Sequence record: OP557969.1 | DNA length: 64,000 bases | From: Escherichia phage ph0011 | Direction: 5' to 3' (one strand) | Part shown: piece after piece, positions 7,532 to 52,224 of the stretch | How positions within the stretch are numbered: position 1 is the first letter of the stretch | How the letters are laid out: every line of letters begins with the position of its first letter | Translations under genes and position numbers: made by a program | The notes under the pieces: model-generated | Database searches by the model: none | What the model was told of the DNA's origin: nothing | What the model saw: only the letters and a program-made list of their open reading frames with translations

Positions 7532-7795
7532 ATGAATATCCAAGATAGATTACAATTGTTGTGCACACTTGAACAAGCTGCTTATGAACTTGTTAATAAA
7601 ATCTCTGAAGAACTTCCCAAAGGAACTAGAGTTCGTGTTCGTGAAATGGATTATGTAACGGGTGAAATTGAAGAAAAAGTTTTAACAGTGGTTAAAGTAA
7701 CATACTATGAGTCAGAGCTATCAATTCAATGTAAGTCAGATAATGGTTACATTTCCTACTATGGCACTGATATAGAGATGGAGGTAATCAAATGA
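7532..7795 (+). CDS. hypothetical small protein (helix then K-G-x-x-V beta motif family)
   Basis: ATG 7532 directly after upstream stop; GGTGGA upstream. Confidence 0.5.
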   Translation: MNIQDRLQLLCTLEQAAYELVNKISEELPKGTRVRVREMDYVTGEIEEKVLTVVKVTYYESELSIQCKSDNGYISYYGTDIEMEVIK

Positions 7796-8934
7796 CCCTT
7801 TTACAAATATATGAAGATTTGATGCACTTATGTAATACCCGTGAGGCTTTCTTTTATGTAGATCATAAAAGTCCTGCTGGTGGCACATATCGTGTATTCA
7901 GTTATCGACTAGCATCATATACTGATTTCATGCAACCGAATGCATTGGAAACCCGTGGTTCTATGTGGGAAATCGATGACGATGGCAACATGATACGTTG
8001 TGCATCACGTTGTATGAAAAAGTTCTTTAATGCTTACGAAAATCCTGCTACGATGTTCCCTGCTGATACCAAATGTGATGACATTGCAGTAGTGATGCCT
8101 AAGTTGGATGGTTCAATTATCAGTTCTTACCGTGATAATGATGGTATTATTCGTTGTAAATCACATACCTCATTGTATTCTGACCATGCAATTAACAGTA
8201 CTCGACTAATTAACGAGAACCAGAATTTGTATCAGTACATTGATGAAGCTGAACGTTTGGGTTACACGGTTAACATGGAGTACACAAGCCCAGAGTACCG
8301 AATCGTATTGCCATATCAGGTAGAACAACTATTTGTTCTAAACGTCCGTCATCGTGTAAGTGGTGAATTGTTGTGTGGTAAAGCATTACGCGAAAAGTTT
8401 CCTTGTCTTTCACAGTACAGCACCAATATGACAGGTAAAGATATTCATCACACGTTTCCGGTAAGAAATACATTTCGTGAAAGTGTTGAAGAAGTTCATA
8501 AAATGCTTGATATTGAGGGTTTTGTTTGTATTCTAAAAGATGGGACAATGTGTAAAATAAAGACGGATTGGTATAGTTCATTACATCTAACAAAAGACAG
8601 TATCATTATTGATTCACATTTGTTCGAAGCTGTGTTAAATGGTTCAAGTGACGACTTGAAACAATTATTCAGTACTGACGAATATGCTATGCAAAAGATA
8701 TTGAGAATGGAACAATTGGTATTTTCGTGCTATAATTCATTACAAGATGAGGTAGAAAACTTCGTCAATACACACAAGCACTTGGGACGAAAGGAATTCG
8801 CAATGAAGGTTCAGGAGTGTTTGACTAATGAACTAAATCGTCAGGGCTTGGCCTTTGCAATGTATAACAATAAGTATGTTGATTATAAAGAAACTCTTAT
8901 CAAATACATGAAAGTAGTACTAAAGGACTTTTAG
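7792..8934 (+). CDS. rnlA: RNA ligase 1 (T4 RnlA/gp63-like)
   Basis: N-terminus REAFFYVDH..GGTYRVFSYRLASYTDF matches T4 Rnl1 (KFFYSDD..GRTYRIFSYNYASY); similar length (380 aa). Confidence 0.85.
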   Translation: MTLLQIYEDLMHLCNTREAFFYVDHKSPAGGTYRVFSYRLASYTDFMQPNALETRGSMWEIDDDGNMIRCASRCMKKFFNAYENPATMFPADTKCDDIAVVMPKLDGSIISSYRDNDGIIRCKSHTSLYSDHAINSTRLINENQNLYQYIDEAERLGYTVNMEYTSPEYRIVLPYQVEQLFVLNVRHRVSGELLCGKALREKFPCLSQYSTNMTGKDIHHTFPVRNTFRESVEEVHKMLDIEGFVCILKDGTMCKIKTDWYSSLHLTKDSIIIDSHLFEAVLNGSSDDLKQLFSTDEYAMQKILRMEQLVFSCYNSLQDEVENFVNTHKHLGRKEFAMKVQECLTNELNRQGLAFAMYNNKYVDYKETLIKYMKVVLKDF

Positions 8935-8963
8935 TATAATCTATAGCCTAAGCACAAGGAGAA

Positions 8964-9221
8964 GTGATGGCTAAACCTAAGTATAGAAATGACGGTTCCC
9001 TTTCTCCAACAGAGTTCAGGAAGATACAAGAAGAAATCGATACATTACAGCACAAACGCTCTAAGAAAGGTGTGAAGATTAGTAAGAAACGAATCGAGAA
9101 TACTTTCGGTTGTAGTAGTACTGAATATAAAAAGAAAAGGAAACCGAAAGATGTTAGACCGAGAATATATGATATTACTCGTTATACATCAAGACGTGAA
9201 AATAAGTTTGATCCACTATAA
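8964..9221 (+). CDS. small basic protein
   Basis: Lys/Arg-rich ORF. Confidence 0.45.
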   Translation: MMAKPKYRNDGSLSPTEFRKIQEEIDTLQHKRSKKGVKISKKRIENTFGCSSTEYKKKRKPKDVRPRIYDITRYTSRRENKFDPL

Positions 9222-9230
9222 GGAGTTCAT

Positions 9231-9461
9231 ATGAAAGTTGAAGTTCAGCATAGTATTGTTCAAGATATGTCGGTAGTGAAATTTCATTCTCTGAAAGATT
9301 ACTTCAGGTGTATCAAGTTTCTAGAAGAATCTCATTTACAGTGGACTCCATTGAAATACAGTTCATTTAATGATACAGCTAGTATTCGTTGTGATGAATC
9401 TGTACTTGTAAAAATTACAAAACGATTTGGGTTAGGTAAAATTAATGAGCACAGTAAATGA
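9231..9461 (+). CDS. hypothetical small protein
   Basis: ORF track. Confidence 0.45.
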   Translation: MKVEVQHSIVQDMSVVKFHSLKDYFRCIKFLEESHLQWTPLKYSSFNDTASIRCDESVLVKITKRFGLGKINEHSK

Positions 9462-9699
9462 CCTAAAATACTACAACCAAACTGCGGATACCTTTATTAC
9501 CCATTTATATGAAGAATTCAGTCGTATCCGCAATGAATATACTGGTAAATGTATTTTATATAGCTTTTATCATAGTGGTGAAATTGAACTTGCTTACATT
9601 ACTAAAGTGAAGTTTTCAGATGACTATCAATTACTCTTTGAATTAGACAATAGTTTCGTTATTGAAGCTAATTTGATAGTTGATGTACTAGATAAGTGA
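9445..9699 (+). CDS. hypothetical small protein
   Basis: ORF track. Confidence 0.45.
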   Translation: MSTVNDLKYYNQTADTFITHLYEEFSRIRNEYTGKCILYSFYHSGEIELAYITKVKFSDDYQLLFELDNSFVIEANLIVDVLDK

Positions 9700-9705
9700 G
9701 GACAC

Positions 9706-10020
9706 ATGAATAAAGAACTTGCTCAAAAAGGCATTGATCAGTTAAAGTACATTGAAAAGGAACTAATAGAATCAGTTGAATTAATGGTCGAAGATTTCGT
9801 GTTTGATTTTAAGAAAACATTGATTGGATGTAAAGTCAAATGCTGGGACCATACTATCAGGGAATGGTTTAGTACTATAATCCTTGATGTTAAAGTATCG
9901 CGTACTGCTTTTGGTAACTTAGTAAATGGTGAATGCTTTGTATACACTGAATACAATAACGGAACAAGACACCTTTCAAAAGGATGGCACAGACTCGAAG
10001 ATGTAGAATTCATTGAGTAG
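9706..10020 (+). CDS. hypothetical small protein
   Basis: ORF track. Confidence 0.45.
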   Translation: MNKELAQKGIDQLKYIEKELIESVELMVEDFVFDFKKTLIGCKVKCWDHTIREWFSTIILDVKVSRTAFGNLVNGECFVYTEYNNGTRHLSKGWHRLEDVEFIE

Positions 10021-10032
10021 TAAGGAGTAATA

Positions 10033-10965
10033 ATGCCGACTATCACACTAACAGTTGGTTTACCTGGATGTGGTAAAACAACATGGGCAGTACAAGAGAT
10101 TAAAAAAGCCAAATCCAAGACTATCAATATCAACCGTGATGATATTCGTGAATCGATGGCTGGGTCACATGATGCTTACAAATTCAATGATGCTAATGAG
10201 AAGTACGTAACTAATTTACAGTTCAGTGCAGCAAAATTAGCAGCAGAGAATGGTTGGAATATTATTGTATCCGACACAAACCTTAAACCACATTTCCGTG
10301 AACAATGGAAAATGTGGGCTAAAGATAATGGTTATGATTATAAAGAAAAGAACTTCTATGATGATTTTGTACCAAAGGAAGACCGTGGTGCAGATGTTCA
10401 TGAATTCTTTAAGATTAAAGAGTTTGTAAAACTTTGTAAGAAATATAACCTCCAGCGTGAGCGTTCAGTACAAGATAATATCATTGACACAATGGCAGAT
10501 ACGTACTATTATAGTAAGGCATTGCATATTGGTTACTATGGTAATTCTCGTGAAGAAGCGATTATCGTTGATATCGATGGAACTCTTGCTCATAAATGGA
10601 ACCGCAATCCATTTGATGAAAGTACAGTTCTCCAAGATACACCAGACGAAGAAGTTATTTTGTCTGTTATCGCCGAAGCAGTTTTTCATAAACGCAAGAT
10701 TATTGTCATGAGTGGTCGTACTGAAGGGTGTCGTGCTGACACAGAACAGTGGTTGAAGAATTGGGGTGTTCCCTACGATGCATTGTTTATGCGAGGCATT
10801 GATGATAAACGTCCCGATGATGTTGTTAAATTCGACCTGTACATGAAAAATGTGGTTGATCATTACGATGTTAAAAAAGTATATGATGACAGAGCACAAG
10901 TCGTATTCATGTGGCGTAAACTACTTGGATTGAAAGTGATGCAAGTTGCGGAAGGAAATTTTTAG
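10033..10965 (+). CDS. pseT: polynucleotide 5'-kinase/3'-phosphatase (T4 PseT-like)
   Basis: P-loop GLPGCGKTTWA, NINRDD, HAD-type IIVDIDGTLA phosphatase motif; colinear with T4 Pnk. Confidence 0.85.
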   Translation: MPTITLTVGLPGCGKTTWAVQEIKKAKSKTININRDDIRESMAGSHDAYKFNDANEKYVTNLQFSAAKLAAENGWNIIVSDTNLKPHFREQWKMWAKDNGYDYKEKNFYDDFVPKEDRGADVHEFFKIKEFVKLCKKYNLQRERSVQDNIIDTMADTYYYSKALHIGYYGNSREEAIIVDIDGTLAHKWNRNPFDESTVLQDTPDEEVILSVIAEAVFHKRKIIVMSGRTEGCRADTEQWLKNWGVPYDALFMRGIDDKRPDDVVKFDLYMKNVVDHYDVKKVYDDRAQVVFMWRKLLGLKVMQVAEGNF

Positions 10966-28076: not shown

Positions 28077-28829
28077 ATGATATCAGAAAAATTCATAAGT
28101 AATGAGGGAAACAAGAGATTACTTATCATCTCAGGAGCAGGTCTTTCCGTTGAAAGTGGTATGGACCCATTTCGTTTCGATGATGGCCTATGGGATACAT
28201 TTAAAATTAATGATGTATGTAATATTGCAAATTTAGATACAAAATATCATATTGTTCATTCGTTTTATAACACGCTGCGTGTTAAACTGGGTCAATGTGA
28301 ACCAAATGCAATGCATTATTTTATAAAATCATTAGAGGAACAATATGGTGATTGTTTCCTTCATATGACTTCAAATATGGATGATCTTTACACCCGTATT
28401 GGCGGTAAAGAACTTAAACTTCATGGTAATTTATGTGAAGTGATAGAAAATTATAGTATTAATGGTGATGATTACAACATTGTTAACTGTGGTTATGAGC
28501 CATATATCCCAAAACATGATATTTTTGCTAAACCAAATGTAGTGATGATTGGTGAGTATCATCGTTATGTAGATGGTGTACGCCTACCAATATATGAAGA
28601 ACGAAATAATGTCTTGAAATCCCTTGATGAAAATGATACAGTTATTGTTATTGGTAGCAGCGATACTGTTCTTGTATGGTCCCGATTGGTAGCATCATTG
28701 CCATGTTATAGTGTCAATGTTAATATTAGAAAGAATGATAATGATTTTTTGTTTAATGAAAAAATTATCAAGCCAGCAACCAAAGCAATACCACAACTAG
28801 AGACTATAATTAAGGAACGTATGAAATGA
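28077..28829 (+). CDS. SIR2-family (sirtuin-like) NAD-dependent enzyme
   Basis: GAGLSVESGMDPFRFDDGLW, TSNMDDLYTR, LHGNL, VIVIGSSDTV match sirtuin motifs (CobB GAGISAESGIRTFR..GLW, TQNIDNLHER, HG, IGTSG); zinc tetra-Cys module not evident. Confidence 0.75.
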   Translation: MISEKFISNEGNKRLLIISGAGLSVESGMDPFRFDDGLWDTFKINDVCNIANLDTKYHIVHSFYNTLRVKLGQCEPNAMHYFIKSLEEQYGDCFLHMTSNMDDLYTRIGGKELKLHGNLCEVIENYSINGDDYNIVNCGYEPYIPKHDIFAKPNVVMIGEYHRYVDGVRLPIYEERNNVLKSLDENDTVIVIGSSDTVLVWSRLVASLPCYSVNVNIRKNDNDFLFNEKIIKPATKAIPQLETIIKERMK

Positions 28830-29377
28830 GTGTTAAAGAAGTTCCCTTTGGTGAATATGGTTCACGTGCAAATTTTGTATTCTGCTATTTCTTTGCAAGA
28901 GGATGTAATCCCTACGAAAACTATGAGTTGAATGATATACCAGAAGTAAATTTAGTATTACTTCAACTACGATGGGATGGCCTTCTGGGTGGATGTGGTG
29001 GTACAGTTGAAAGTACTGATATCTCATTAGAAGATGCGTTGCGTCGTGAAATACAAGAAGAAATGAACTACTATATTTTTGTTTCTCACCTAAAACCACT
29101 TAAAACGTTTGAAATTTACCCAGGTGCAAACAGTCATAGTTTCAGTTATGAAGTAACATATGATGAGTTAAAATACATTCGTGATGGGTATACAACTGCC
29201 AAACATGCAAGTGCCGAAGTTGCTGGTGTAAATTTATGTCACATTTCTCGTTATTCTAAGGGACAAAATCGAGAAGCGGGATATAATAATCTTATGACAC
29301 AGAACTTCATCGGTACAGCAAAACACGAATTAGCGTATCTGGTACAAAAAGAGAACTTACTAATTAGCTATCTATAG
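28826..29377 (+). CDS. divergent Nudix-like protein
   Basis: GGCGGTVE ... RREIQEEMN resembles Nudix box G-x5-E-x7-REUxEExGU with longer spacer; start overlaps SIR2 stop (ATGA). Confidence 0.45.
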   Translation: MSVKEVPFGEYGSRANFVFCYFFARGCNPYENYELNDIPEVNLVLLQLRWDGLLGGCGGTVESTDISLEDALRREIQEEMNYYIFVSHLKPLKTFEIYPGANSHSFSYEVTYDELKYIRDGYTTAKHASAEVAGVNLCHISRYSKGQNREAGYNNLMTQNFIGTAKHELAYLVQKENLLISYL

Positions 29378-29387
29378 GAGTTTAAAA

Positions 29388-29708
29388 ATGTCTTACTCTA
29401 TGTTTTTGGATGACATTCGTGATGCAAAACAATATTACCCTAATCAAGATATGGTAGTATGTCGTGATTTTAACAGTGCGTGTGAATATGTTGTTAAAAA
29501 TGGAATTCCAGCATTTGTATCATTTGACCATGACTTGGGTGATATGAGTGGAGACGAAAAAACTGGATATTCTTTTGCTAAATTTCTTATTGATTATATG
29601 TTTGATAATAATATTAAAGAACCGTTTGAGTACTTTGTGCACAGTAGTAACCCAGTTGGTAAAGTTAACATTGAAACATACTTAAACAATGGATTTAATG
29701 CATTATGA
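29388..29708 (+). CDS. hypothetical protein, possible receiver(REC)-like fold
   Basis: FLDDIRD ... FVSFDHDLGD ... VHSSNP acidic-pocket pattern; weak inference. Confidence 0.45.
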   Translation: MSYSMFLDDIRDAKQYYPNQDMVVCRDFNSACEYVVKNGIPAFVSFDHDLGDMSGDEKTGYSFAKFLIDYMFDNNIKEPFEYFVHSSNPVGKVNIETYLNNGFNAL

Positions 29709-30007
29709 TTCAAACACATATTAAAAGTATCATTTGCACTATACTACTAGGTGTAGGAGTTCTATGGTTCAGTAATTATCACGAGAACACTAAGCGTACA
29801 AATATTCACTATAATACCGCAGAAGTTGTAAGTTTAGGACAATGTAGTGAGTACAAATGTTCGTTTATGTACAAAACCAGTAATGGTGAAGTACGTAATG
29901 GACTATCTAGTGAACCAGTTTCGATTGGTCAAATTGTTTACCAGGAGTGCTGGGAAGAAAAGGTTCGAGGTTCACGATGTTATGTTGAATACGAACCAAA
30001 AATGTAA
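29705..30007 (+). CDS. membrane-anchored small protein
   Basis: N-terminal TM IICTILLGVGVLWF. Confidence 0.5.
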   Translation: MIQTHIKSIICTILLGVGVLWFSNYHENTKRTNIHYNTAEVVSLGQCSEYKCSFMYKTSNGEVRNGLSSEPVSIGQIVYQECWEEKVRGSRCYVEYEPKM

Positions 30008-30070
30008 TAATAACATGAGTCAATAATAATAGCCGAGTACAAGGATGTACTCACAATTCAAGGATGTTTT

Positions 30071-31510
30071 ATGAAAAAATATACAATTGACACAAACGTA
30101 CTACTATCTGATCCAAATGCATCTGTTGCTTTTGATGGTGCTGCAATCATTCTACCATTTACAGTACTGGAAGAATTGGATTCGATTAAGAGTCGCAATG
30201 TTGATGTTTCACGTGATGCTCGTGTTGCGATTCGTAACATTGAAGCAATTATTGCAGAGGCATCACATAATGAGATTAGTTGTACTGGTGTTAATATTGC
30301 TGATGTTCATACCAATATGAGTCCTGAAAGCAAATTGTTTGTTATTACAAACGAAGAAGCTGAAGCACTAATTCGTACTAAGGCAATTGAAGATAAAGTT
30401 CAAACACTTCTCAAAAGTTCTGTACCAGATGATAAAATTATCTTAGTCGCTTTAGCAACTGATTCAGTACTGGTTACCCGTGATATCAATATGCGTATCA
30501 AGGCTCTTAGTTATGGAGTTGAAGTACAGGATTATCGTCATGATGTGGTTATCGGTGATAGCGATCTAATGCACGTAGGTCAACATCATCTCGATATCGA
30601 TTTCTGGGCAGAATTCAGTGGGATTGAAAATGCTGAAATTAAATCTGAAAAAACAGGTCGCCGCCTGTATCATTATATCCCAACACATCTAATCAAAGAT
30701 CTTCTTCCACAAAATCTTTGTATTGGTGACTATCTATATGATAATGCTGATGTGCTCTTTGTTTACGAAGGTCAGTCTGCAATCGAAGAAGATGATGGTA
30801 GTCTAACACCAGAAGATATTTTGGTCTTCCAAGATATTGGTCAATCTGTTGCATTACGTGCTAATGTATGGGATATTAAAGCTAAGAATGTCAAACAAGC
30901 ACTAGCTATTAATAGTATTCTCGATCCCGATGTACATCTAACAGTTCTACTAGGTTCTGCTGGGACAGGAAAAACACTAATTACGATTGCTACTGCACTA
31001 GAGTTAGTTCTGGAAAAACGTAAATACGACCGTATTATCTTCTCTAAAACACAAGATTCACAGTTTGAAGATATCGGATTCTTGCCTGGTTCAGAGGCCG
31101 AGAAAGTGATTCCATTTTGTGGTCCAGCGATTGACGCACTAGAGTACCTACATAAAGATGATGCAAATCCACAAGGTAGCATTGAGGAAATCATGAAACG
31201 TAATGTTATCCAGTTCAAAGCATTGAACTTTATTCGTGGTCGTTCTTTTGCCAATACAATTCTAATTGTGGATGAAGCACAGAACTTAACACCAGCCCAG
31301 CTAAAAACTGTCTTGACAAGAGCCGGAGAAAACTGTAAAGTAATCATACTTGGTAACCTAGCACAGATCGATAACAAGTTTATCAGTCCAGTAAACAGCG
31401 GTCTAACTTATGTAACTGAGAAATTTAAAAATTGGTCTGGTTGTCGTATCATTGAATTGGAAGGTGTTGTTCGTTCACCACTTGCTGAATTTGCTGAAGA
31501 AAATATGTAA
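30071..31510 (+). CDS. phoH: PIN domain-PhoH-like ATPase
   Basis: N-terminal PIN-like (IDTNVLLSDP, LEELD); Walker A VLLGSAGTGKT, Walker B ILIVDEAQN. Confidence 0.8.
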   Translation: MKKYTIDTNVLLSDPNASVAFDGAAIILPFTVLEELDSIKSRNVDVSRDARVAIRNIEAIIAEASHNEISCTGVNIADVHTNMSPESKLFVITNEEAEALIRTKAIEDKVQTLLKSSVPDDKIILVALATDSVLVTRDINMRIKALSYGVEVQDYRHDVVIGDSDLMHVGQHHLDIDFWAEFSGIENAEIKSEKTGRRLYHYIPTHLIKDLLPQNLCIGDYLYDNADVLFVYEGQSAIEEDDGSLTPEDILVFQDIGQSVALRANVWDIKAKNVKQALAINSILDPDVHLTVLLGSAGTGKTLITIATALELVLEKRKYDRIIFSKTQDSQFEDIGFLPGSEAEKVIPFCGPAIDALEYLHKDDANPQGSIEEIMKRNVIQFKALNFIRGRSFANTILIVDEAQNLTPAQLKTVLTRAGENCKVIILGNLAQIDNKFISPVNSGLTYVTEKFKNWSGCRIIELEGVVRSPLAEFAEENM

Positions 31511-43478: not shown

Positions 43479-46220
43479 ATGGCTTCTAGACGAATTATAG
43501 GAAACGCAGATATACTAGGGAATTTAAAAATTAATGGAAAGTATGCATTACGTTCCCTTAATGGTGTTCCTGCTGACTCTGCTGGTAAAATCACTTATCA
43601 ATATTATGACAAAGCGGAAGTAAATCAGATATTTGATATGCTTCCAGTTTCAAGGGTAGGTGATCAAGATTACCTACCAATGAGTATTAACGGTACTTTT
43701 GAAGGTGCTTCTTCCTTTTCATTTGCAAAAATAATGCAACCTTGTATCATTGAAAATGATGGAACTGGTGTAATTTTACGTGCAGGTACAAATGGAAGTT
43801 CTTATGGTTACTATTATACTTATATTAAAAATATAAGAGATATAGAAACACTAACTCAAGATAATATAATTACAACCAATACGATGTATAGACCGTCTGT
43901 GCTACCAAGTACTGATTACATTTATGAATTTTATGGGTCAAATGCATATGAATTACTATTTTGGGAATCAACTGATAGAACATCATATTACCTTACATTA
44001 ACAAATGAAACATTGAATGAATCAGCACACAAGCATTGCAGAATTCCAAAAACAGCAATAACAAATAAACCAATATATGCACACATCGTAAATGATTCAG
44101 TTTATATATGGTGTATGGATTCAAGTGTATTTAGTAGTGTTCGCGGGTGTGCATTTATTATATACACAGTACCTTTAACTGCATTTAATACTGGTTCAGT
44201 TTCTACCGTAACACAGATTGGTGGTTATTCAGGAAGAACTATAAGAGATGCAACATATACTGCATCTAATAATATTCGCGTTTATGATAGCTATTCTATT
44301 TTAGGTTCAGGTGGTGATGCACTAATAGTATATGATAATGGTATTTCCAGAATAGATTATTGGGAAAATAACGTATTTAATACCCAAGCAGTTCTTAGCC
44401 CAGATGGTACAAAAATAAGAGTTGCGATCTATCCAGGATTCCGTGTTTTCACTGAAACAAAAACATCTAGTGTATATGCACTTGGTATTAGCTTTACATA
44501 TGATATCAGTACTAAAACAATGACACTTGACGGTTCTGAACGTGGTCCAATCAGAGTATCAGCTAATACATCAACTGGTAGTATAACAGTAAGAAACCCG
44601 TTTTCAATCAATATGGAAAACTTTACAGGGTTTTATGACGGTGCACTTGGCAACTATGGTTCAATCTGTCAAACTTCTGATGGTTTTGTTTTCACCACCA
44701 AAGCAAGATGGACATCCACACCAACATATGCAGTACAAACATACAAAGTTTCTGGTACACCTTATGATAGTTGGGTCGCTAAAACACGTACTGCTAGTAA
44801 TTTAAAACGTGTCGAAGTAATGCCAGTTTATGGTTCCCCTGTCGGTGAAAACTTAATAGGTGTTCGTTTCGTAGATAAACGTAAGATACTTGTTGCATGT
44901 TCTGGCACTGCTGATGGAATTTCTTATGGTTATGATAGTACAGTTTTTACTGAAATAGGTGAGAATCCGACTTATGTTTATAAAAACTTGGAACAAAATA
45001 CCACAATGAATGGTTTTGCACCATCAAGTAATAGACACTATTTAAGTACTGATTACAAATATGCAGGTATGATAACATTGGTTGATGCAAATGGAAATGT
45101 CAGCACTTATGGTTCTTCGTTAATAGAAGACATCGATAAACCAGCGTATGGAAAATTCGACCCAGTTACAATGGACTTCGACAGTAATAGATATGAAATT
45201 TCAGGAACAACATTATCAAGTATAGGTGATAATGCAATCGCTAAAGCTGGATTGTCTGGAATAACTGATCATAAAACTGTTTTTTATTATGTACCTGATA
45301 CTACATATTCTAAATCGATTGCAGTCACTTCTGCATTAAACGGTACTACCAATGTGTGTTATATTATTTTTTCCGAAATATCATGTAGTGCAGTTGGTAC
45401 AAGTGGTACTATAATTTTACGTGATATTAATGTTGATACAGCAAGATATACATCAATGACGAATACATTCCAAATTTCACCAAATGAAATGGTCAAACGT
45501 TGGGCTGGTATGACGGTTTCTAAGTTTAGTGGTTTTAACTACTTAGGTGTGAACATTTTATATGGCATTGATACCCCAGGTTGGACTCGTTATCCTAACA
45601 TGATTGCTAAAGTGAAAAATGGTATTATTTCAAGTCAACGATATATGGAAACAACTTATATTTCAAACGCACAATTTGATATAGGTACAATTCCAGGGAT
45701 TGGGTTTGGATATTACCAAATGAACAAAAACGATTATCAAACTAAATCAGTTTTTGCTGTATGTGGTACTACTGAAGCAGATATGGATAAACTAATATCT
45801 GGTAATGAAACGATATCACAGTACTTAGTTATTGCTTCACAGGACGTGGCACAAGGGTTTCATGTATACTTTTCACAAGAAGTACCAGTTTTCTTGGGTG
45901 GAAAGTTTGCAAAGATACCACCGACTATGATAGACTTATCTACTATAAGTACTACACCAGAGAATTCAACATTCTACATATATGCGGTGATGGATAGAGA
46001 TACATCCACAGCATCGTATCAGATATCACTACATCAATTATCAGAAACTATGACATCAACATACATTGGTAAGATAGTAACTAATAATAATGGTATTGCA
46101 TCAATCGAGTCTGAAAAAGTTTCCAGATTCTTGCTATACCGTCCAAGTACCTACAATCGTGGTTCTGCGATCCCAGCAAGTTCTGGTGTTCCGTCAGGAA
46201 CAGGTACACGTTGGAATTAA
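43479..46220 (+). CDS. large paralogue B (913 aa), probable late/virion protein
   Basis: N-terminal MLPVSRVGDQDYLP and C-terminal QDVAQGFHVYFSQEVPV shared with paralogue A. Confidence 0.75.
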   Translation: MASRRIIGNADILGNLKINGKYALRSLNGVPADSAGKITYQYYDKAEVNQIFDMLPVSRVGDQDYLPMSINGTFEGASSFSFAKIMQPCIIENDGTGVILRAGTNGSSYGYYYTYIKNIRDIETLTQDNIITTNTMYRPSVLPSTDYIYEFYGSNAYELLFWESTDRTSYYLTLTNETLNESAHKHCRIPKTAITNKPIYAHIVNDSVYIWCMDSSVFSSVRGCAFIIYTVPLTAFNTGSVSTVTQIGGYSGRTIRDATYTASNNIRVYDSYSILGSGGDALIVYDNGISRIDYWENNVFNTQAVLSPDGTKIRVAIYPGFRVFTETKTSSVYALGISFTYDISTKTMTLDGSERGPIRVSANTSTGSITVRNPFSINMENFTGFYDGALGNYGSICQTSDGFVFTTKARWTSTPTYAVQTYKVSGTPYDSWVAKTRTASNLKRVEVMPVYGSPVGENLIGVRFVDKRKILVACSGTADGISYGYDSTVFTEIGENPTYVYKNLEQNTTMNGFAPSSNRHYLSTDYKYAGMITLVDANGNVSTYGSSLIEDIDKPAYGKFDPVTMDFDSNRYEISGTTLSSIGDNAIAKAGLSGITDHKTVFYYVPDTTYSKSIAVTSALNGTTNVCYIIFSEISCSAVGTSGTIILRDINVDTARYTSMTNTFQISPNEMVKRWAGMTVSKFSGFNYLGVNILYGIDTPGWTRYPNMIAKVKNGIISSQRYMETTYISNAQFDIGTIPGIGFGYYQMNKNDYQTKSVFAVCGTTEADMDKLISGNETISQYLVIASQDVAQGFHVYFSQEVPVFLGGKFAKIPPTMIDLSTISTTPENSTFYIYAVMDRDTSTASYQISLHQLSETMTSTYIGKIVTNNNGIASIESEKVSRFLLYRPSTYNRGSAIPASSGVPSGTGTRWN

Positions 46221-46226
46221 TTTTAA

Positions 46227-46254
46227 AGCTCGTCTATTGACGGGCTTTTCTTTT
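46227..46254 (+). terminator. rho-independent terminator
   Basis: stem agctcgtc/gacgggct (one G-U) followed by TTTTCTTTT. Confidence 0.55.
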
Positions 46255-46288
46255 GTGTGTATAATACAAAGAAATATAGGAGGAAATT

Positions 46289-46855
46289 ATGGTCAAATCA
46301 TTACTACCACCACCAAAACGACATAAAATTAAAGAAATGAAAGAACAACGTACATTAAAGATGTACAACAATTTAGTTAATTTACTTTGCAAAAGTCCAT
46401 CACTCAAAGAAATATTCACCACAGATGATGATCGTAATGCACTTATTGAGATGAAGTATATGCTCAGTAAAATGTCCTTTTACAAATTTGTCAAAGAATA
46501 CTCAACTGAACCATTCAGTCCTCGTTGGCGAGTCAAACCAAGAGAGTATTTTTTCGGTGGTTCATATACTGATATCATTCAAGATACGGTGATAGGCGTA
46601 GAGTTCGAGATTGATTATGAGCCTAATGGTGTGGAAAACTGGCAGATTGACAAACATTTACCAAGTGAAGATGAAATTTATGTTTATGCAAGAAAACAGT
46701 CAACTTTCAGTTCAAAAATTGCTCTTAATAATTTAGATTCATTTATTATTTTCTATACATTTGTCGGTGTAGATAAAATGGCAACTAAACTCAATGAATT
46801 ATCATTGCAACAAAAACAGATTAATGCATACAAAGACATTACAGATTTATACTAA
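46289..46855 (+). CDS. member 1 of tandem ~170-190-aa paralogue trio
   Basis: shared pattern LKEIFTTDDDRNALIEMKYMLSK with next two genes. Confidence 0.6.
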   Translation: MVKSLLPPPKRHKIKEMKEQRTLKMYNNLVNLLCKSPSLKEIFTTDDDRNALIEMKYMLSKMSFYKFVKEYSTEPFSPRWRVKPREYFFGGSYTDIIQDTVIGVEFEIDYEPNGVENWQIDKHLPSEDEIYVYARKQSTFSSKIALNNLDSFIIFYTFVGVDKMATKLNELSLQQKQINAYKDITDLY

Positions 46856-46861
46856 TGAGGA

Positions 46862-47383
46862 TTGGATATGTTTTTTGGACAGTTTAAAAAACCTGACAGT
46901 ACTTTAATTTGGCATGAAATCATCTTTAAAATTATATCTAAAAGCTACTCACTAAAAGATATTATCAAAACAGATCATGATCGACGTGTTCTGTTAGAAG
47001 CAAAATATAAATTGAGCAAACACCCGTTACTTTCTTTAATCATTGATTACGTTAATGATTATGAATCCAGTCGTTGGAAGTGGGAAGACGGAGGTTTATT
47101 TCGTGGAAAAACATTCTACGGTGCAGAACGATATGTATTCAGTGATACAGCAAATGGTGTTAAGTTTGCTATTAGAAACTTTAACTCCAAAGAAAATGAT
47201 TATCTTGAAAGTGGAGTTAAGGTGTATATAGATAATAATAACAATGTACTTACATATGACGAATCACTAATTATGTTACAAATAATGCGTGGAGTTGAAA
47301 GTGTAAGACACAATCTTACTAAGTTGAAAATCCAGCAAAATGATATACATAATAGACAGAAAATTAAGGGTTTATATAAATGA
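46862..47383 (+). CDS. member 2 of tandem paralogue trio
   Basis: LKDIIKTDHDRRVLLEAKYKLSK. Confidence 0.6.
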   Translation: MDMFFGQFKKPDSTLIWHEIIFKIISKSYSLKDIIKTDHDRRVLLEAKYKLSKHPLLSLIIDYVNDYESSRWKWEDGGLFRGKTFYGAERYVFSDTANGVKFAIRNFNSKENDYLESGVKVYIDNNNNVLTYDESLIMLQIMRGVESVRHNLTKLKIQQNDIHNRQKIKGLYK

Positions 47384-47889
47384 TTTCATTTTTCAAAAAG
47401 AAAGAAAAAGTTGATGAAACTGGATTAGAATCGTTTCTATGGACTCTTATCATTAAAAAAAGTCCATTAATGAAAGAATATGCTATCAATGATGCTAATA
47501 GAAAAACTATCATTGAATACAAATACGAATTATCAAAATGTGATCCAATAGTTTATCACTTTGCGAAGTACTGTTCTAAAAATTTATCGGATATCACGAT
47601 TGAACACGAGTCAGTACCAATGAGTTTTCCTTATGGTGATTGGGTAAATACTTTTGATATTTTCGATGGGTCTAATGGATTCCGTTTCTTTTACTCGTCA
47701 AATAAAGCAAATGTTCGTATTAAAACTGAGATAGGTTGGGCACAGCATAGCACAAATAAAGAAGATTATAATTTACTAGCTGACGTATACCGAAGTGTGA
47801 AGAATTCAAAGGATATTGATGAAAGAATTAAAAAGCAAAATCGTATTTCTTTATCACTTGAAACATACAAGTCAAAGTATGGTGGTTAA
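47380..47889 (+). CDS. member 3 of tandem paralogue trio
   Basis: MKEYAINDANRKTIIEYKYELSK. Confidence 0.6.
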   Translation: MISFFKKKEKVDETGLESFLWTLIIKKSPLMKEYAINDANRKTIIEYKYELSKCDPIVYHFAKYCSKNLSDITIEHESVPMSFPYGDWVNTFDIFDGSNGFRFFYSSNKANVRIKTEIGWAQHSTNKEDYNLLADVYRSVKNSKDIDERIKKQNRISLSLETYKSKYGG

Positions 47890-47891
47890 CT

Positions 47892-48293
47892 ATGACTACA
47901 GTTGATGATATCTATAGTACTATACGCAATATGAGCACAGATAGAAAAGTATTTGGTGATAAAGAAAAATCTAAGTGTTATGGTATTGATTCTTTTGATA
48001 TAATTTCGTATGAGTACAATACGAATGGAAATAGTTCACTGAATATTGTCTGCCCTCGTGACCCAGAAAATAATTTTATGTATGTTGAAATTAATAATGA
48101 TGGAATGTTTTTTACAAAAGTTTTTAAAGGTGGAATTAATTACGAAACAATTGAATGTATGAATGAAGAAACTTTCTTTCAAGAAGATACAATTATCAAT
48201 TTAGGTTTTAGTTTTGATGATTATAAAACATTAGAACATGACTTTAATCGTTATTATAACGGTTTCTTAAAGGAGTTAACAATTTATCTATGA
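47892..48293 (+). CDS. hypothetical protein
   Basis: ORF track. Confidence 0.5.
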   Translation: MTTVDDIYSTIRNMSTDRKVFGDKEKSKCYGIDSFDIISYEYNTNGNSSLNIVCPRDPENNFMYVEINNDGMFFTKVFKGGINYETIECMNEETFFQEDTIINLGFSFDDYKTLEHDFNRYYNGFLKELTIYL

Positions 48294-49522
48294 ATAACCA
48301 ATATGTTGAACAAACAATAGTGAAACACTTGGCTGGGTCACAAGCCTACGGAACCAGTACACCTGAAAGTGATACTGATTATCGTGGTATTTTTCTTGCT
48401 AATAAAGAATTTATTCTTACGCCATTCTATAAGGTTAAAGAAGTAGCTGATAAAAATGAAGAAGATACCAAATTCTATGAGTTAAATCAGTATTTAAAAT
48501 TATACACTGATGCTAACCCTAATATTCTGGAATCACTATGGGTTGAACCAGAACACATTGTAGAAAGTACTGAGATTTATGACTATCTTCGTTCATTTAA
48601 CCAAAAACTTCTTAGTTCCAAGATTGCATTTTCATACACTGGATATGCATATAATCAAATTAAACGTATGACAAATCACCACGGTTGGATGGATAAAGAG
48701 CGTATTGCTGAAAAACGTTTAAATGAGATTTTAGAAGAACACCCAGTCGATGAGGTTCTTGTGTGGATGTATGATTCATTCCCACAATATCTTGTTGACC
48801 GTTTAGATACATCCAAATTACATCCATTTAATGCTAAAAAGATTGATTTTGAAAAATACATGCGTGATACGTCATTGCAGTTAGTTTCGAAAAATCCATT
48901 AAAGCAATATCATTTTGTAAGATTAGTGCATAACTACACTACTGATAAAATTCTAGATCGTGATTTCAATTTATTGAATTTTAACAATGGGTATGAACTA
49001 ATTCATTACGGAGAAAACATTTTTGCGATTATTAAAAATCCAAATGAAAGTACAATCAACGGTGATGGTTCATTGCGACATTTTTCAAAAGAGCGTAGTA
49101 CTGAAGAGTTGAAAACCAAACCAGAACTAATTGTCAAATTTAACGAAAAAGAATATCAGGAAAATAGTGAGAATAGAAAAAGTTATCATAAATGGAAAGA
49201 AAATCGTAATGCCAAACGTGCTATTTTAGAATCACTACACGGCTATGATTGCAAAAGTGCAATGCATACCATTAGACTATTGAATAGTGCAGAAGATGCA
49301 TTACAAAGTGGGATTATTCAAGTTAAACGCCCAGATGCACAGATGTTGATGGATATTCGTAATGGTAAATGGAAGTATGAAGAAGTTTTAGAATATTTCG
49401 ATGATAAAGTAAAATATATCCGTGATGTTCTATATAAGAAATCAGAACTTCCAAAAAAACCAGATATTAAATTAGCATCGAAAATTATCATTGATATCCG
49501 AGAGATGCAATGGTATAAGTAA
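48290..49522 (+). CDS. nucleotidyltransferase-fold protein (Pol-beta-like NTase superfamily)
   Basis: N-terminal GSQAYGTSTPESDTDYRGIF matches the G[GS]x(9-13)Dh[DE] NTase signature. Confidence 0.6.
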   Translation: MNNQYVEQTIVKHLAGSQAYGTSTPESDTDYRGIFLANKEFILTPFYKVKEVADKNEEDTKFYELNQYLKLYTDANPNILESLWVEPEHIVESTEIYDYLRSFNQKLLSSKIAFSYTGYAYNQIKRMTNHHGWMDKERIAEKRLNEILEEHPVDEVLVWMYDSFPQYLVDRLDTSKLHPFNAKKIDFEKYMRDTSLQLVSKNPLKQYHFVRLVHNYTTDKILDRDFNLLNFNNGYELIHYGENIFAIIKNPNESTINGDGSLRHFSKERSTEELKTKPELIVKFNEKEYQENSENRKSYHKWKENRNAKRAILESLHGYDCKSAMHTIRLLNSAEDALQSGIIQVKRPDAQMLMDIRNGKWKYEEVLEYFDDKVKYIRDVLYKKSELPKKPDIKLASKIIIDIREMQWYK

Positions 49523-49616
49523 TATATGGGTGTAATAGTTATAAAAAATTCCATTACACACCAAATCACTTCAGTGATTTATATCTTGACATTGAAAAAA
49601 ATAATTATGTATAGTT

Positions 49617-49647
49617 AGAGAACTTCATATGGAGTTCTCTTTTTTTA
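49617..49647 (+). terminator. rho-independent terminator
   Basis: 8-bp stem agagaact/agttctct followed by TTTTTTT. Confidence 0.65.
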
Positions 49648-49660
49648 TAAGGGTGATTAA

Positions 49661-50062
49661 ATGTTAAATGAACGTATTAAAAATGCACTATATGTATTGA
49701 ACCAAGAAGTTAATTCTATTAATAAAAGTACTGAGCGATATAAAGTATTACATGAAATTAGACAAGAATTGGAATCTATTAATAAGGGAAAATGGGTTCT
49801 TGAACGCGAACGAACTATTGTTGAAAAAGCAATTGCAAAATTCATCTCTGAACGTTATGGTAAAATTTCAGAGGAAGATGTACTAATGAACTTACATCTT
49901 TCACAAACGGAAGTGATGGAGAAATTTCATTTTGATTCATTAGACTGGTTGGAAATGATCATGGAATTGGAAGAAGAATTCAATGTAGAAGTAGATTTAT
50001 ATTATGAAAAACAAGAAACCAAACTATATGAACTAGCAGAACATATTAAACTAATGATGTAA
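49661..50062 (+). CDS. protein with acyl-carrier-protein-like C-terminal domain
   Basis: FDSLDWLEMIMELEEEFNVEV resembles ACP helix-II motif (DSLDTVELVMALEEEF) including the conserved Ser. Confidence 0.5.
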   Translation: MLNERIKNALYVLNQEVNSINKSTERYKVLHEIRQELESINKGKWVLERERTIVEKAIAKFISERYGKISEEDVLMNLHLSQTEVMEKFHFDSLDWLEMIMELEEEFNVEVDLYYEKQETKLYELAEHIKLMM

Positions 50063-50115
50063 ACATATACCATTATATACTCTAAATAATATCATCAACT
50101 ACAGGAGATGATATT

Positions 50116-50490
50116 ATGAGTGTACTAGAAATTATTGTTTCAAAAATTTTAATTCCATATTGGAAGCCGATTTCTTTTGCGTTATTACTCGGTGGTGCGG
50201 CATTATCAGGTTGGAAAGCTAATACTTATTATACTGGTTATCAGCAAAGTATCGAGCAACAAATAGCCAAACAGGTTGATGTCGCACTTGATAAAATGCA
50301 ACAGGAAAATGCAAAAAATTACATTGAAACAAAAAAAATCATGGAAGATAATGCTAAAGTTATTGAAACGAAAGTTCCTTATATAGTAGAACGCAAAGTT
50401 TATAAGAATGTGTGTTTAGATGAAGATGGCGTGAAAATTCTAAATGATCTAAAACAAAATTCACAAGCAATGAGGAATAAGTTAAAATGA
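50116..50490 (+). CDS. i-spanin-like protein (N-terminal TM plus periplasmic coiled coil)
   Basis: TM segment ISFALLLGGAALSGW; overlaps downstream lipoprotein gene. Confidence 0.55.
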   Translation: MSVLEIIVSKILIPYWKPISFALLLGGAALSGWKANTYYTGYQQSIEQQIAKQVDVALDKMQQENAKNYIETKKIMEDNAKVIETKVPYIVERKVYKNVCLDEDGVKILNDLKQNSQAMRNKLK

Positions 50491-50795
50491 AAAAAATATT
50501 AGTCCCAATGATTTCTTTTTTAATTATAAGTGGTTGTGCTGAACAAGCAAAACTACAATCACCTGCACCTATTAAACAAGAAATTCTATTAGAAAGATGT
50601 GATGATGATACACCTCTGCCACAAAAAATCATGATTGACAATAATGGTTTTAAAGGTTATGATGGTGCAGAAATTCTTAAAGTACTTACTCGTTGGGATG
50701 CAATCTATAATGAGTGTGCTTTAAAACATGATGCCTTGATTAAAACTATTCGCGATTTACAAGGCAAAGATATTAAAATTAATATCAAGGAATAA
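50487..50795 (+). CDS. o-spanin-like outer-membrane lipoprotein
   Basis: signal peptide with lipobox IISGC; start overlaps i-spanin stop (ATGA). Confidence 0.55.
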   Translation: MKKILVPMISFLIISGCAEQAKLQSPAPIKQEILLERCDDDTPLPQKIMIDNNGFKGYDGAEILKVLTRWDAIYNECALKHDALIKTIRDLQGKDIKINIKE

Positions 50796-50796
50796 A

Positions 50797-51414
50797 ATGA
50801 ACAAATATCATGTTTACTATAAGACTAATTTATCACTACTGGAAAAATTAAACCATAAAAGTACTAAGATTAAACACTACACATTAAATGGAATTACTTT
50901 TAAGTATTTTCCACAAAAAGTTCTTACATTTATTAAGAATCCAAAATGCATAGCATGTGGTATTGAAGCAACAGAAGTACGTATTGAACGTACATTTAGT
51001 TCTGACCCAATTTTCGGTAAACCACATTTAAATCTATATGCAGTATGTGGTCTTTATGAAGTTTTAATGACAGTTGACCATAATAATCTAGCATCAAAAG
51101 GTGGTCCAGATTTAGAGTCGAACTTTAATACTATGTGCTCCAGATGCAATCAACTACGTTCAAATAAAACTGAATCAGTTGATGAGTTTCTTGTGAAAGT
51201 TAAAGGTCGTAATCTTCTACAAGAACATATGAATAATTTCTTTAATGTGCAAAATGGACAAAAGAAAAATAGTATTGATAAATCAAAACTACTAGAAGAA
51301 CGTAGATTACAACAAGAATTATGGGAAACTGATCATTTATGGCATGTTCGAGAATTTGGTCGCCATATGAAAGCGTTAAAAAAAGAACAAAAGAAATTGA
51401 ACAATCACAATTAA
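50797..51414 (+). CDS. HNH endonuclease (free-standing, possible homing endonuclease)
   Basis: TVDHNNLASKGG ... N ... CSRCNQLRSN matches HNH motif. Confidence 0.65.
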   Translation: MNKYHVYYKTNLSLLEKLNHKSTKIKHYTLNGITFKYFPQKVLTFIKNPKCIACGIEATEVRIERTFSSDPIFGKPHLNLYAVCGLYEVLMTVDHNNLASKGGPDLESNFNTMCSRCNQLRSNKTESVDEFLVKVKGRNLLQEHMNNFFNVQNGQKKNSIDKSKLLEERRLQQELWETDHLWHVREFGRHMKALKKEQKKLNNHN

Positions 51415-51424
51415 TATGCTATGA

Positions 51425-51456
51425 TAGGGACTTGAGAAATCGAGTCCCTATTTTTT
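51425..51456 (+). terminator. rho-independent terminator
   Basis: 9-bp stem tagggactt/gagtcccta followed by TTTTTT. Confidence 0.65.
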
Positions 51457-51467
51457 GGAGAAAATAA

Positions 51468-51824
51468 ATGAAATCGAAAATCTTTTTACCACAATTAATG
51501 TGGCATCTGGCAGAGTTAGATGAAGATGATGAATACACTGACTATGGTACATGGGATGACAGTACTGAAACTTTCAAACCAGATATGAAATACAAAATCA
51601 TTTGCAACGAAAGTAAAGGGCACAGAAGGTGGACTGAAGAATTTGATCTCGTATTTCTTGACATGAGTACAAACAAGTTTTATCATTGTACATATGAACG
51701 AGGTTTAACAGAAGACAGACCAGTACAACCATTCAGTAATGAAACTGATGGTGTTAAGTGCAATGAAGTTTCTGTTATAAGAGAAGAAATTATCACTTAT
51801 CGAACTTTGTGGAAATATTTGTAA
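51468..51824 (+). CDS. hypothetical protein
   Basis: ORF track. Confidence 0.5.
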   Translation: MKSKIFLPQLMWHLAELDEDDEYTDYGTWDDSTETFKPDMKYKIICNESKGHRRWTEEFDLVFLDMSTNKFYHCTYERGLTEDRPVQPFSNETDGVKCNEVSVIREEIITYRTLWKYL

Positions 51825-51825
51825 A

Positions 51826-52224
51826 ATGCTTAAAGAATTAGATTTTTCAAACTTAGAAATTATCAGTGCTGTTAAAAACATCTCCGACATGGGAGATGAG
51901 AAATCAGTGCTTGTTACTATTACTTTTGTAAAAGAAGAAGATAGTTATAGTCATTTGACTGGTATTGAAGAACTAATTCATAAAACCAATCTTGAAAATA
52001 ATGGTAAACTCATCAAACTTCAGGCATCCTATATCCAAAAAACATCAAATTTTATAGACATAAATAATATAGTCAAGGTGGTATATAATCATCCTGACCA
52101 CAAATATAGGAATACATCAAGAAATGAAAATATTGCGAAAGATACTAACATCATAGAAGATGTTGACTTTATCAATACTATTTTTGATCGTTGCTCTATT
52201 GATTTGAAAAAAGTATACATGTAA
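51826..52224 (+). CDS. hypothetical protein
   Basis: ORF track. Confidence 0.5.
   Translation: MLKELDFSNLEIISAVKNISDMGDEKSVLVTITFVKEEDSYSHLTGIEELIHKTNLENNGKLIKLQASYIQKTSNFIDINNIVKVVYNHPDHKYRNTSRNENIAKDTNIIEDVDFINTIFDRCSIDLKKVYM

Follow-up and report, generated by a model that had tools for sequence, protein, structure and literature searches.

The nucleotidyltransferase (NTase) gene considered here lies within 64 kb of DNA from Escherichia phage ph0011, the whole of which is called the window below. Its open reading frame (ORF), 48290-49522 on the + strand, opens with ATG and encodes a product of 410 aa; the ATG overlaps the TGA of an upstream 133-aa ORF (ATGA at 48290-48293), an AAGGAG stands ~14 nt upstream of the start, and the genes around it lie on the + strand throughout, in DNA with a GC content of ~30-35%. 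The NTase is the last member of a putative five-gene unit (46289-49522), after three small ORFs that are paralogs of one another and the 133-aa ORF; the unit is preceded by a promoter match and bracketed by two terminator-like hairpins (46225-46248 and 49617-49640), all of them consensus matches only. Searches with Pfam and PHROGs-type profiles found no known domains in the other four ORFs of the unit, and the nearest neighbours of the NTase gene are small ORFs without assigned function, tail-fibre genes and lysis genes. The features of the immediate locus are as follows:

46237..46265, + strand: sigma70-like promoter by consensus match only (TTGACG-17-TATAAT), preceding the putative unit 46289-49522
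47892..48293, + strand: upstream 133-aa ORF (phrog_22376, function unassigned), its stop overlapping the NTase start
48290..49522, + strand: RlaP-family (PF10127) nucleotidyltransferase gene, ortholog of 121Q gp506, 410 aa plus stop
49617..49647, + strand: terminator-like hairpin (49617-49640) plus T-run downstream of the NTase gene, a consensus match only

The window is that of an Asteriusvirus (121Q/PBECO4-like) jumbo coliphage: a megablast search with positions 46000-52000 matched 35 Escherichia/Salmonella jumbo phages of this genus, among them 121Q, PBECO4, SP27 and phAPEC6, with the best match to UE-S1 (93.7% identity). The NTase genes of 121Q, PBECO4 and other Asteriusvirus members (phrog_388) are orthologs in the same synteny; in 121Q a 3.4-kb tail-fibre insertion without counterpart in ph0011 follows gp506, and there is otherwise no difference of substance. 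At the protein level the ph0011 enzyme is 96% identical to 121Q gp506, 97% to its SP27 counterpart and 98% to cluster P0001, and gp506, like several other relatives, already carries the label "nucleotidyltransferase". Comparison with 121Q shows purifying selection in every segment of the gene, including an insertion specific to the clade (dN/dS 0.135). The 133-aa ORF is kept only within the Asteriusvirus-like clade, and a search for a conserved partner gene found no relationship between it and the ORFs that precede the T2, 4MG and Vibrio-phage homologs; the earlier description of the protein as phage-borne and stand-alone, with no fused or adjoining partner, is confirmed.

That description came from a sequence-only reading of this DNA, which had also reported a 410-aa ORF with a GS-x9-SDxD motif. 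Frame and motif are present exactly, and the signal is far beyond chance: the Pfam family PF10127 (RlaP) matches aa 12-131 over profile positions 23-144 of 249, with 57.5 bits against a gathering cutoff of 23 (E 2e-15); phrog_388, "nucleotidyltransferase", matches aa 3-409 (E 6e-76); and dN/dS against 121Q gp506 is 0.066. The Pfam description of PF10127 is "RNA repair pathway DNA polymerase beta family". The family is widely distributed, with 735 homologs in a set of 5.8 billion proteins (PF10127 being found in 120 of the 120 listed), 6784 cluster representatives at E<=1e-3 in a HMMER scan of 1.84 billion such representatives, and members in 1207 phage records by tblastn, including Vequintavirinae, Lak megaphages and the T-even NrdC.11 gene. 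NCBIfam and PADLOC searches with the NTase gave no meaningful match, and sequence and profile searches of the PDB matched no chain in a copy that apparently lacked the PfRlaP structure. Judged by these profile matches, the protein is a member of the RlaP family and not an orphan NTase, and it is almost certainly an active RlaP-family NTase. The Pol-beta NTase fold proposed earlier holds up on the PF10127 match, the Foldseek neighbours and a conserved catalytic triad, and the profile and structure searches led to RlaP and to no unrelated fold; the specificity class, previously left open, can be narrowed to the PF10127 RlaP subfamily, two bacterial members of which have been characterised (PMC12776372). 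As a finding this is an ordinary one that alone adds little, the gene being already annotated in near-identical phages and the family already named, surveyed in jumbo phages and partly characterised in bacteria.

Only the N-terminal half of the protein aligns directly to the PF10127 profile, and the remaining ~330 aa had been set aside as unrecognised. This no longer applies: the phrog_388 alignment is full-length, and short RlaPs and T4/T2 NrdC.11 have helical domains homologous to the C-terminal domain. An AlphaFold2 model (pLDDT 91.4, pTM 0.80) and the comparison of relatives divide the protein as follows:

48290..48691, + strand: N-terminal Pol-beta NTase catalytic domain, aa 1-134, matching PF10127 positions 23-144 and an alpha/beta fold in the model
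48335..48382, + strand: G16-S17-x9-S27-D28-x-D30 motif (GSQAYGTSTPESDTDY), with two of the three catalytic carboxylates; G16, S17, D28 and D30 each 98% conserved in 186 homologs
48464..48466, + strand: D59 in an EEDTK motif directly before strand 61-64, the proposed third carboxylate from position and conservation
48692..48904, + strand: clade-specific helical insertion (aa ~135-205), which at least 94% of family representatives lack; helices in the model, dN/dS 0.135
48905..49144, + strand: middle beta-rich module, aa ~206-285, present in ~350-aa long-form relatives and missing from short RlaPs of 230-290 aa
49145..49519, + strand: C-terminal helical domain, aa 286-410, seen in the model, with W302, R306, N307, R310, E314, R347 and D349 conserved
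49241..49276, + strand: GYDCKSAMHTIR motif, with conserved D320, K322 (100%), H326 and R329 (100%), an intein site in distant homologs

Complete short relatives of 230-290 aa correspond to NTase aa ~7-130 joined within ~10 residues to aa ~290/320-408, and they match PF10127 over positions ~17-234, that is, over both domains. Viral short NTases from BFVD (232-287 aa) reach target-normalised TM-scores of 0.71-0.77 in superpositions that cover both ends of the model, and when the family alignment was compared by hhalign with the NrdC.11-like protein of T2 (337 aa), the probability was 97.9% (E 5e-13) across both domains, the GxDxKxxxHxxR motif included. Because short relatives, model superpositions and the NrdC.11 alignment all span both ends, the protein is a canonical RlaP core of two domains, with a ~150-aa insert (aa 135-285) between them. 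The first part of the insert, a ~65-aa insertion typical of the Asteriusvirus-like clade, is entered in the model by a very long helix that leads from the NTase domain into the helical segment ~135-205; the second, the beta-rich module, possibly has a role in substrate specificity. A cleft is taken to lie between the NTase domain and the predicted basic C-terminal helical domain. In the PfRlaP crystal structure the terminal helix of the latter packs against the NTase domain and a basic cleft results, an arrangement matched by the model helices, the short relatives and the conserved R306, R310, K322, R329 and R347. The stand-alone long form is shared with T4/T2 NrdC.11 (337 aa), another phage protein co-resident with RNA ligase 1 (Rnl1) and polynucleotide kinase/3'-phosphatase (Pnkp); the two differ in that identity is ~27% over the hhalign columns and ~29% where tblastn matches the N-terminus, alignment of the middle region is poor, and NrdC.11 lacks the 65-aa insertion.

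The catalytic apparatus is that expected of a Pol-beta NTase, with the signature hG[GS]-x9-13-DxD and a third conserved carboxylate. Around the motif the N-terminus reads AGSQAYGTSTPESDTDYRG (G16-S17-x9-S27-D28-T29-D30), and G16, S17, S27, D28, D30 and D59 are invariant in 31 homologs that are 39-85% identical. In a wider set of 186 long-form homologs from phage, metagenomic and bacterial sequences, 23-43% identical to the NTase, the acidic triad D28/D30/D59 is kept at 98/98/93%, so that the loss of the triad, for which homologs were inspected, is not seen in this set. The third catalytic acid, missing from the earlier description, is probably D59, the best candidate by virtue of its position (in EEDTK, ahead of a beta-strand) and its conservation. 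The same 186 sequences also conserve N76-P77-N78, E81, Q123, H130, W302, R306, N307, R310 and E314, and further along D320, K322 (100%), H326, R329 (100%), R347 and D349.

Four functional classes had been offered for the protein, namely RNA end modification, cGAS/DncV-like signalling, minimal NTase (MNT) toxins/antitoxins and antibiotic NTases; the first fits the family assignment and the other three found no support. A cGAS/DncV-like CD-NTase was rejected on the lack of any PADLOC, SMODS or other CD-NTase Pfam match and on a Foldseek comparison with CdnD of E 1.1 and probability 0.06. Toxin-antitoxin NTases of the minimal or AbiEii type are ~100-150 aa long against 410 aa here, the neighbouring genes lack HEPN or toxin domains, PADLOC returned no match, and MNT structures match the core fold only (Foldseek E 0.075). 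For the aminoglycoside NTases (KNTase/ANT) there is weak fold similarity and no family-level match past the core fold.

The closest solved structures by Foldseek are the Hailong protein HalB and NTases of the KNTase/ANT type, at 6-17% identity and with no family-level sequence match, and these neighbours bear on three further readings. An enzyme that transfers nucleotides to a small molecule or to a protein (AMPylation), aimed at a host factor or metabolite, would resemble KNTase, ANT(3'')(9), DrrA and GlnE, all of them structural neighbours that have the layout of NTase plus helical domain in common with the ph0011 enzyme; we regard it as improbable. Synthesis of nucleotide or oligonucleotide signals or decoys against nucleotide-based host immunity, in the manner of CD-NTases or of Hailong HalB, is very unlikely: identity to HalB is just 15%, the PADLOC, SMODS/CD-NTase and CdnD results given above speak against it, PF10127 membership is clear, and characterised members of the family stop at 1-2 additions and do not extend DNA (PMC12776372). 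Partners and substrates differ too: HalB is paired with the HalA channel and makes oligo-dA by protein (Tyr) priming, and the KNTase/ANT enzymes act on aminoglycosides. A bolder version, to which we give hardly any credence, is that the ~150-aa module (aa 135-285) has retargeted the NTase to become a template-independent, possibly protein-primed, HalB-like oligonucleotide synthase whose product is a decoy or signal that silences nucleotide-gated defences; if true, it would account for the missing RNA ligase linkage in phages and in cyanobacterial chromosomes.

Published work on RlaP centres on RNA ends. RlaP takes its name from an association with RNA ligase genes (Burroughs & Aravind 2016, as cited in PMC12776372 and PMC7824862), and it has since been reported to be the NTase found most often in jumbo phages, with a distribution that parallels that of RNA ligases and a predicted role in putting back nucleotides lost from cleaved RNA ahead of ligation (Iyer et al. 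2021, PMC7824862). The enzymes of P. fluorescens and P. aeruginosa (PfRlaP and PaRlaP) have been characterised biochemically (Carruthers, Fatma & Huang, bioRxiv Dec 2025, PMC12776372): among E. coli macromolecules they label RNA alone, adding 1-2 NMPs (or dNMPs) to a 3'-OH and not to a 3'-phosphate, with Mn2+ as the best metal, and neither genomic nor synthetic DNA is an acceptor. Their acceptors are many cellular RNAs, among them rRNA and full-length tRNA, with a preference for the 5' half of a broken-tRNA mimic and for a break in the anticodon loop over the acceptor end (PMC12776372). The resulting 3'-OH suits 5'-P ligases such as T4 Rnl1, and treatment with RlaP and then T4 Rnl1 partly restores aminoacylation to a tRNA lacking one anticodon-loop nucleotide (PMC12776372). 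In the same study T4 NrdC.11 is assigned to cluster 5 of the family, and ligase linkage is shown by only some members (PMC12776372). With the Pseudomonas enzymes the ph0011 NTase shares the Pfam family, the GS...DxD motif with a third Asp, the NTase and C-terminal helical domains and the predicted chemistry at an RNA 3'-OH (PMC12776372); it differs in length (410 aa against ~250 aa), in the ~150-aa module between the domains and in having no adjoining gene for RtcB or another RNA ligase.

That the enzyme works on DNA ends, filling gaps or acting as a terminal transferase in replication, recombination or repair, might be suggested by genomic position: on one ~127-kb phage-like metagenomic contig the homolog sits between recA/uvsX-like and uvsW-like genes, and the T-even homolog lies in the nrdC nucleotide-metabolism region. 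However, gene position is not constant between phage lineages, and the bacterial RlaPs have no activity on genomic or synthetic DNA (PMC12776372), which makes such a role highly unlikely.

The window holds several other genes concerned with RNA ends, which are set out here together with a PIN-PhoH protein:

7792..8934, + strand: T4-type RNA ligase 1 (Rnl1) with a tRNA-specific C-domain (PF09511 + PF20819; phrog_562, E 6e-109), a likely partner in trans
10033..10965, + strand: T4-type polynucleotide kinase/3'-phosphatase (Pnkp; PF25109 HAD_PNKP, E 7e-43, + AAA_33; phrog_505, E 2e-95), a likely partner in trans
30071-31510: PIN-PhoH protein
62645..63757, + strand: class-II CCA-adding/poly(A)-polymerase-type tRNA nucleotidyltransferase (PF01743 + PF12627; 121Q gp539)

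Rnl1 is the counterpart of 121Q gp438 and is 37% identical to T4-like RnlA, and Pnkp is the counterpart of 121Q gp443. The class-II CCA-adding enzyme/PAP belongs to the same superfamily as the NTase and, like the activity predicted here, is template-independent, acts on RNA 3' ends and takes part in tRNA end repair; it is of a different family, the NTase ORF having no PF01743 match. No tRNA genes were found within the 64-kb window, and the closest relatives carry 8.

Two kinds of genomic association have been used to recognise RlaP, and they give different answers here. Adjacency to, or an operon with, an RNA ligase (RtcB or Rnl-type) is not found at the ph0011 NTase: neither the unit 46289-49522 nor its flanks contain an RNA ligase gene, and Rnl1 is 39 kb away. 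Residence in the same genome as an RNA ligase and end-healing enzymes is found, in the form of Rnl1 and Pnkp within the window, among the few lineages compared. Both genes, and the CCA-adding-type NTase with them, also reside with the NTase in 121Q, in the unrelated Vequintavirinae phage 4MG and in T-even phages; in 4MG these are an Rnl1-like gene and a CCA enzyme that lies 2.5 kb upstream of the NTase homolog, alongside about 24 tRNAs. The NTase and Rnl1 have close homologs (at least 60% identity) in almost the same number of phage records, 45 and 44 respectively.

We favour, at a probability of roughly 60%, a role in which the NTase would replace nucleotides on the 3' ends of cleaved tRNA or other RNA before Rnl1 seals them, countering host anticodon nucleases. 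By analogy with the bacterial enzymes it most likely extends the 3'-OH of damaged RNA by 1-2 NMPs, in a template-free and Mn2+-dependent manner, and among such ends it would prefer the 5' half that is left when a tRNA is cleaved in its anticodon loop; that the phage long form shares the substrate of the bacterial RlaPs, and has Pnkp and Rnl1 as its partners in vivo, is what we infer from these parallels. In the proposed sequence a host anticodon nuclease or ribotoxin would cut the tRNA and may trim a nucleotide from it. Wobble-nucleotide excision by RloC, which removes a nucleotide when cutting tRNA, is a lesion of this type. Pnkp (10033-10965) would then take off the 2',3'-cyclic or 3' phosphate and phosphorylate the 5'-OH, RlaP would put back the missing nucleotide(s), one or two, at the 3'-OH, and Rnl1 (7792-8934) would seal the 3'-OH/5'-P nick. 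The presence of a separate CCA enzyme (62645-63757) to handle acceptor-end damage argues that RlaP serves another lesion.

Several considerations weigh against a repair role. The operonic ligase linkage that named the family is absent, and distant homologs occur in unrelated contexts: there are no RNA-repair genes next to the NTase homolog in three distant phage neighbourhoods, and there is no RNA ligase among the conserved neighbours of about 80 bacterial long-form loci, mostly from filamentous cyanobacteria. The ORF clusters around 79 bacterial homologs are lineage-specific and housekeeping only (L21, a ChlI-like AAA protein, GHL10, Kdp and pentapeptide proteins), and such surroundings count against repair, as does the fact that the T4 homolog, NrdC.11, belongs to a fragment that T4 can lose under laboratory conditions (PMC9825161). 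The NTase is also divergent from the characterised Pseudomonas enzymes, and the ~150-aa insert could change the substrate.

An RNA 3'-end enzyme that works apart from ligase-coupled repair would sit comfortably with this absence of an operonic link. Its task might be the tailing or marking of RNAs, of the host or of the phage, so as to direct their decay, stabilisation or translation, or else the repair of tRNA acceptor ends. The biochemistry of RlaP fits, in that 1-2 nt are added to many RNAs including rRNA and full-length tRNA (PMC12776372), and homologs fused to RNase_T suggest 3'-end trimming and refilling. We nonetheless consider it unlikely, since Rnl1 and Pnkp co-occur with the NTase in three phage lineages; for acceptor ends in particular, the phage already has an enzyme of the CCA-adding type dedicated to them (62645-63757), and characterised RlaPs favour the broken anticodon-loop end over the acceptor end (PMC12776372).

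Were the NTase confirmed as the nucleotide-restoring partner of Pnkp and Rnl1, it would mean that phages can reverse tRNA lesions thought to be beyond repair, such as wobble-nucleotide excision of the RloC type. The window, in which Rnl1, Pnkp, RlaP and a CCA-adding enzyme are found together, is a handy test case for this, and substrate specificity could be approached through the inserted module.

It is worth noting, finally, that most of the long homologs (~700 aa) in the family are intein-containing proteins, and that only two of them, P0150 and P0208, are true fusions, in which the NTase is joined to an RNase_T 3'-5' exonuclease. In at least six distant homologs the intein is placed exactly at GYD|xKHAMH, and the fusions and the inteins at this site are in keeping with an enzyme of RNA 3' ends whose helical domain contains a critical motif.

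Distant homologs of the window's RlaP-family nucleotidyltransferase (NTase) are interrupted by inteins in several members of the protein collection (P0094, P0121, P0131, P0136, P0149 and P0206), and P0123, P0124 and P0139 are probably intein-bearing as well. These elements are ~300-350 aa long and are inserted exactly inside the conserved GYDxKHAMH motif, between GYD and xKHAMH, at a site that corresponds to D320/C321 of the window NTase. Their first residue is Cys, their last three are HGN, and the residue after the intein is T, S or C; the one in P0123 contains a LAGLIDADG domain. Among long-form homologs, P0150 and P0208 carry a C-terminal fusion to RNase_T, a DEDD 3'-5' exonuclease. Bacterial chromosomes encode >570 long-form homologs of ~355 aa, mostly in filamentous cyanobacteria (Nostoc, Calothrix, Chamaesiphon, Planktothrix), where the neighbours at the loci surveyed (L009-L088) are housekeeping genes and no RNA ligase was found nearby.

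Features of the window considered here are as follows:
23357-26029, minus strand, Ig-like repeat gene, 890 aa, nine Big_2 repeats
46289-47889, three tandem paralogous small ORFs of 188, 173 and 169 aa (two phrog_18641, one phrog_7868)
49661-50062, acyl-carrier-protein (ACP)-like ORF, 133 aa, matching PP-binding and phrog ACP families
50116-50490, Rz-like i-spanin, overlapping the next ORF
50487-50795, lipoprotein ORF with an ISGC lipobox
50797-51414, HNH endonuclease, next after the lipoprotein ORF

The tandem paralogs lie directly upstream of the NTase, with which they probably form one transcription unit; all three share the motif ...D.R..L.E.KY.LSK, and no known domain was found in any of them. 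Downstream, the PP-binding score of the ACP-like ORF (20.8 bits) falls exactly on Pfam's threshold, and there is no obvious partner synthase nearby. The lipoprotein ORF, whose 121Q counterpart is annotated as hypothetical, is likely the o-spanin.

In phage 121Q (locus L001, 9541-12959, compared with window 49523-49660) and in most of the Asteriusvirus relatives, the NTase is separated from the ACP-like gene by ~3.4 kb of inserted DNA with two tail-fibre genes (gp507-509), whereas the window, UE-S1 and slurp01 lack it. The insertion is therefore polymorphic as an indel, and the intergenic site where it lies is promoter/terminator-like.

Accessory genes related to RNA and NAD are abundant elsewhere in the window (7792-10965, 28077-31510 and 60214-63757), and include Rnl1, Pnkp, Sir2 with a Nudt16-like Nudix, PIN-PhoH, an HPF/RaiA ribosome hibernation factor and a CCA-adding-type NTase. 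The Ig-like repeat gene is the sole large minus-strand gene of the window and sits in a region of raised local GC (0.39). Because the equivalent place in 121Q holds only a 125-aa Ig-domain structural gene, the comparison suggests that it arose by repeat expansion or replacement.
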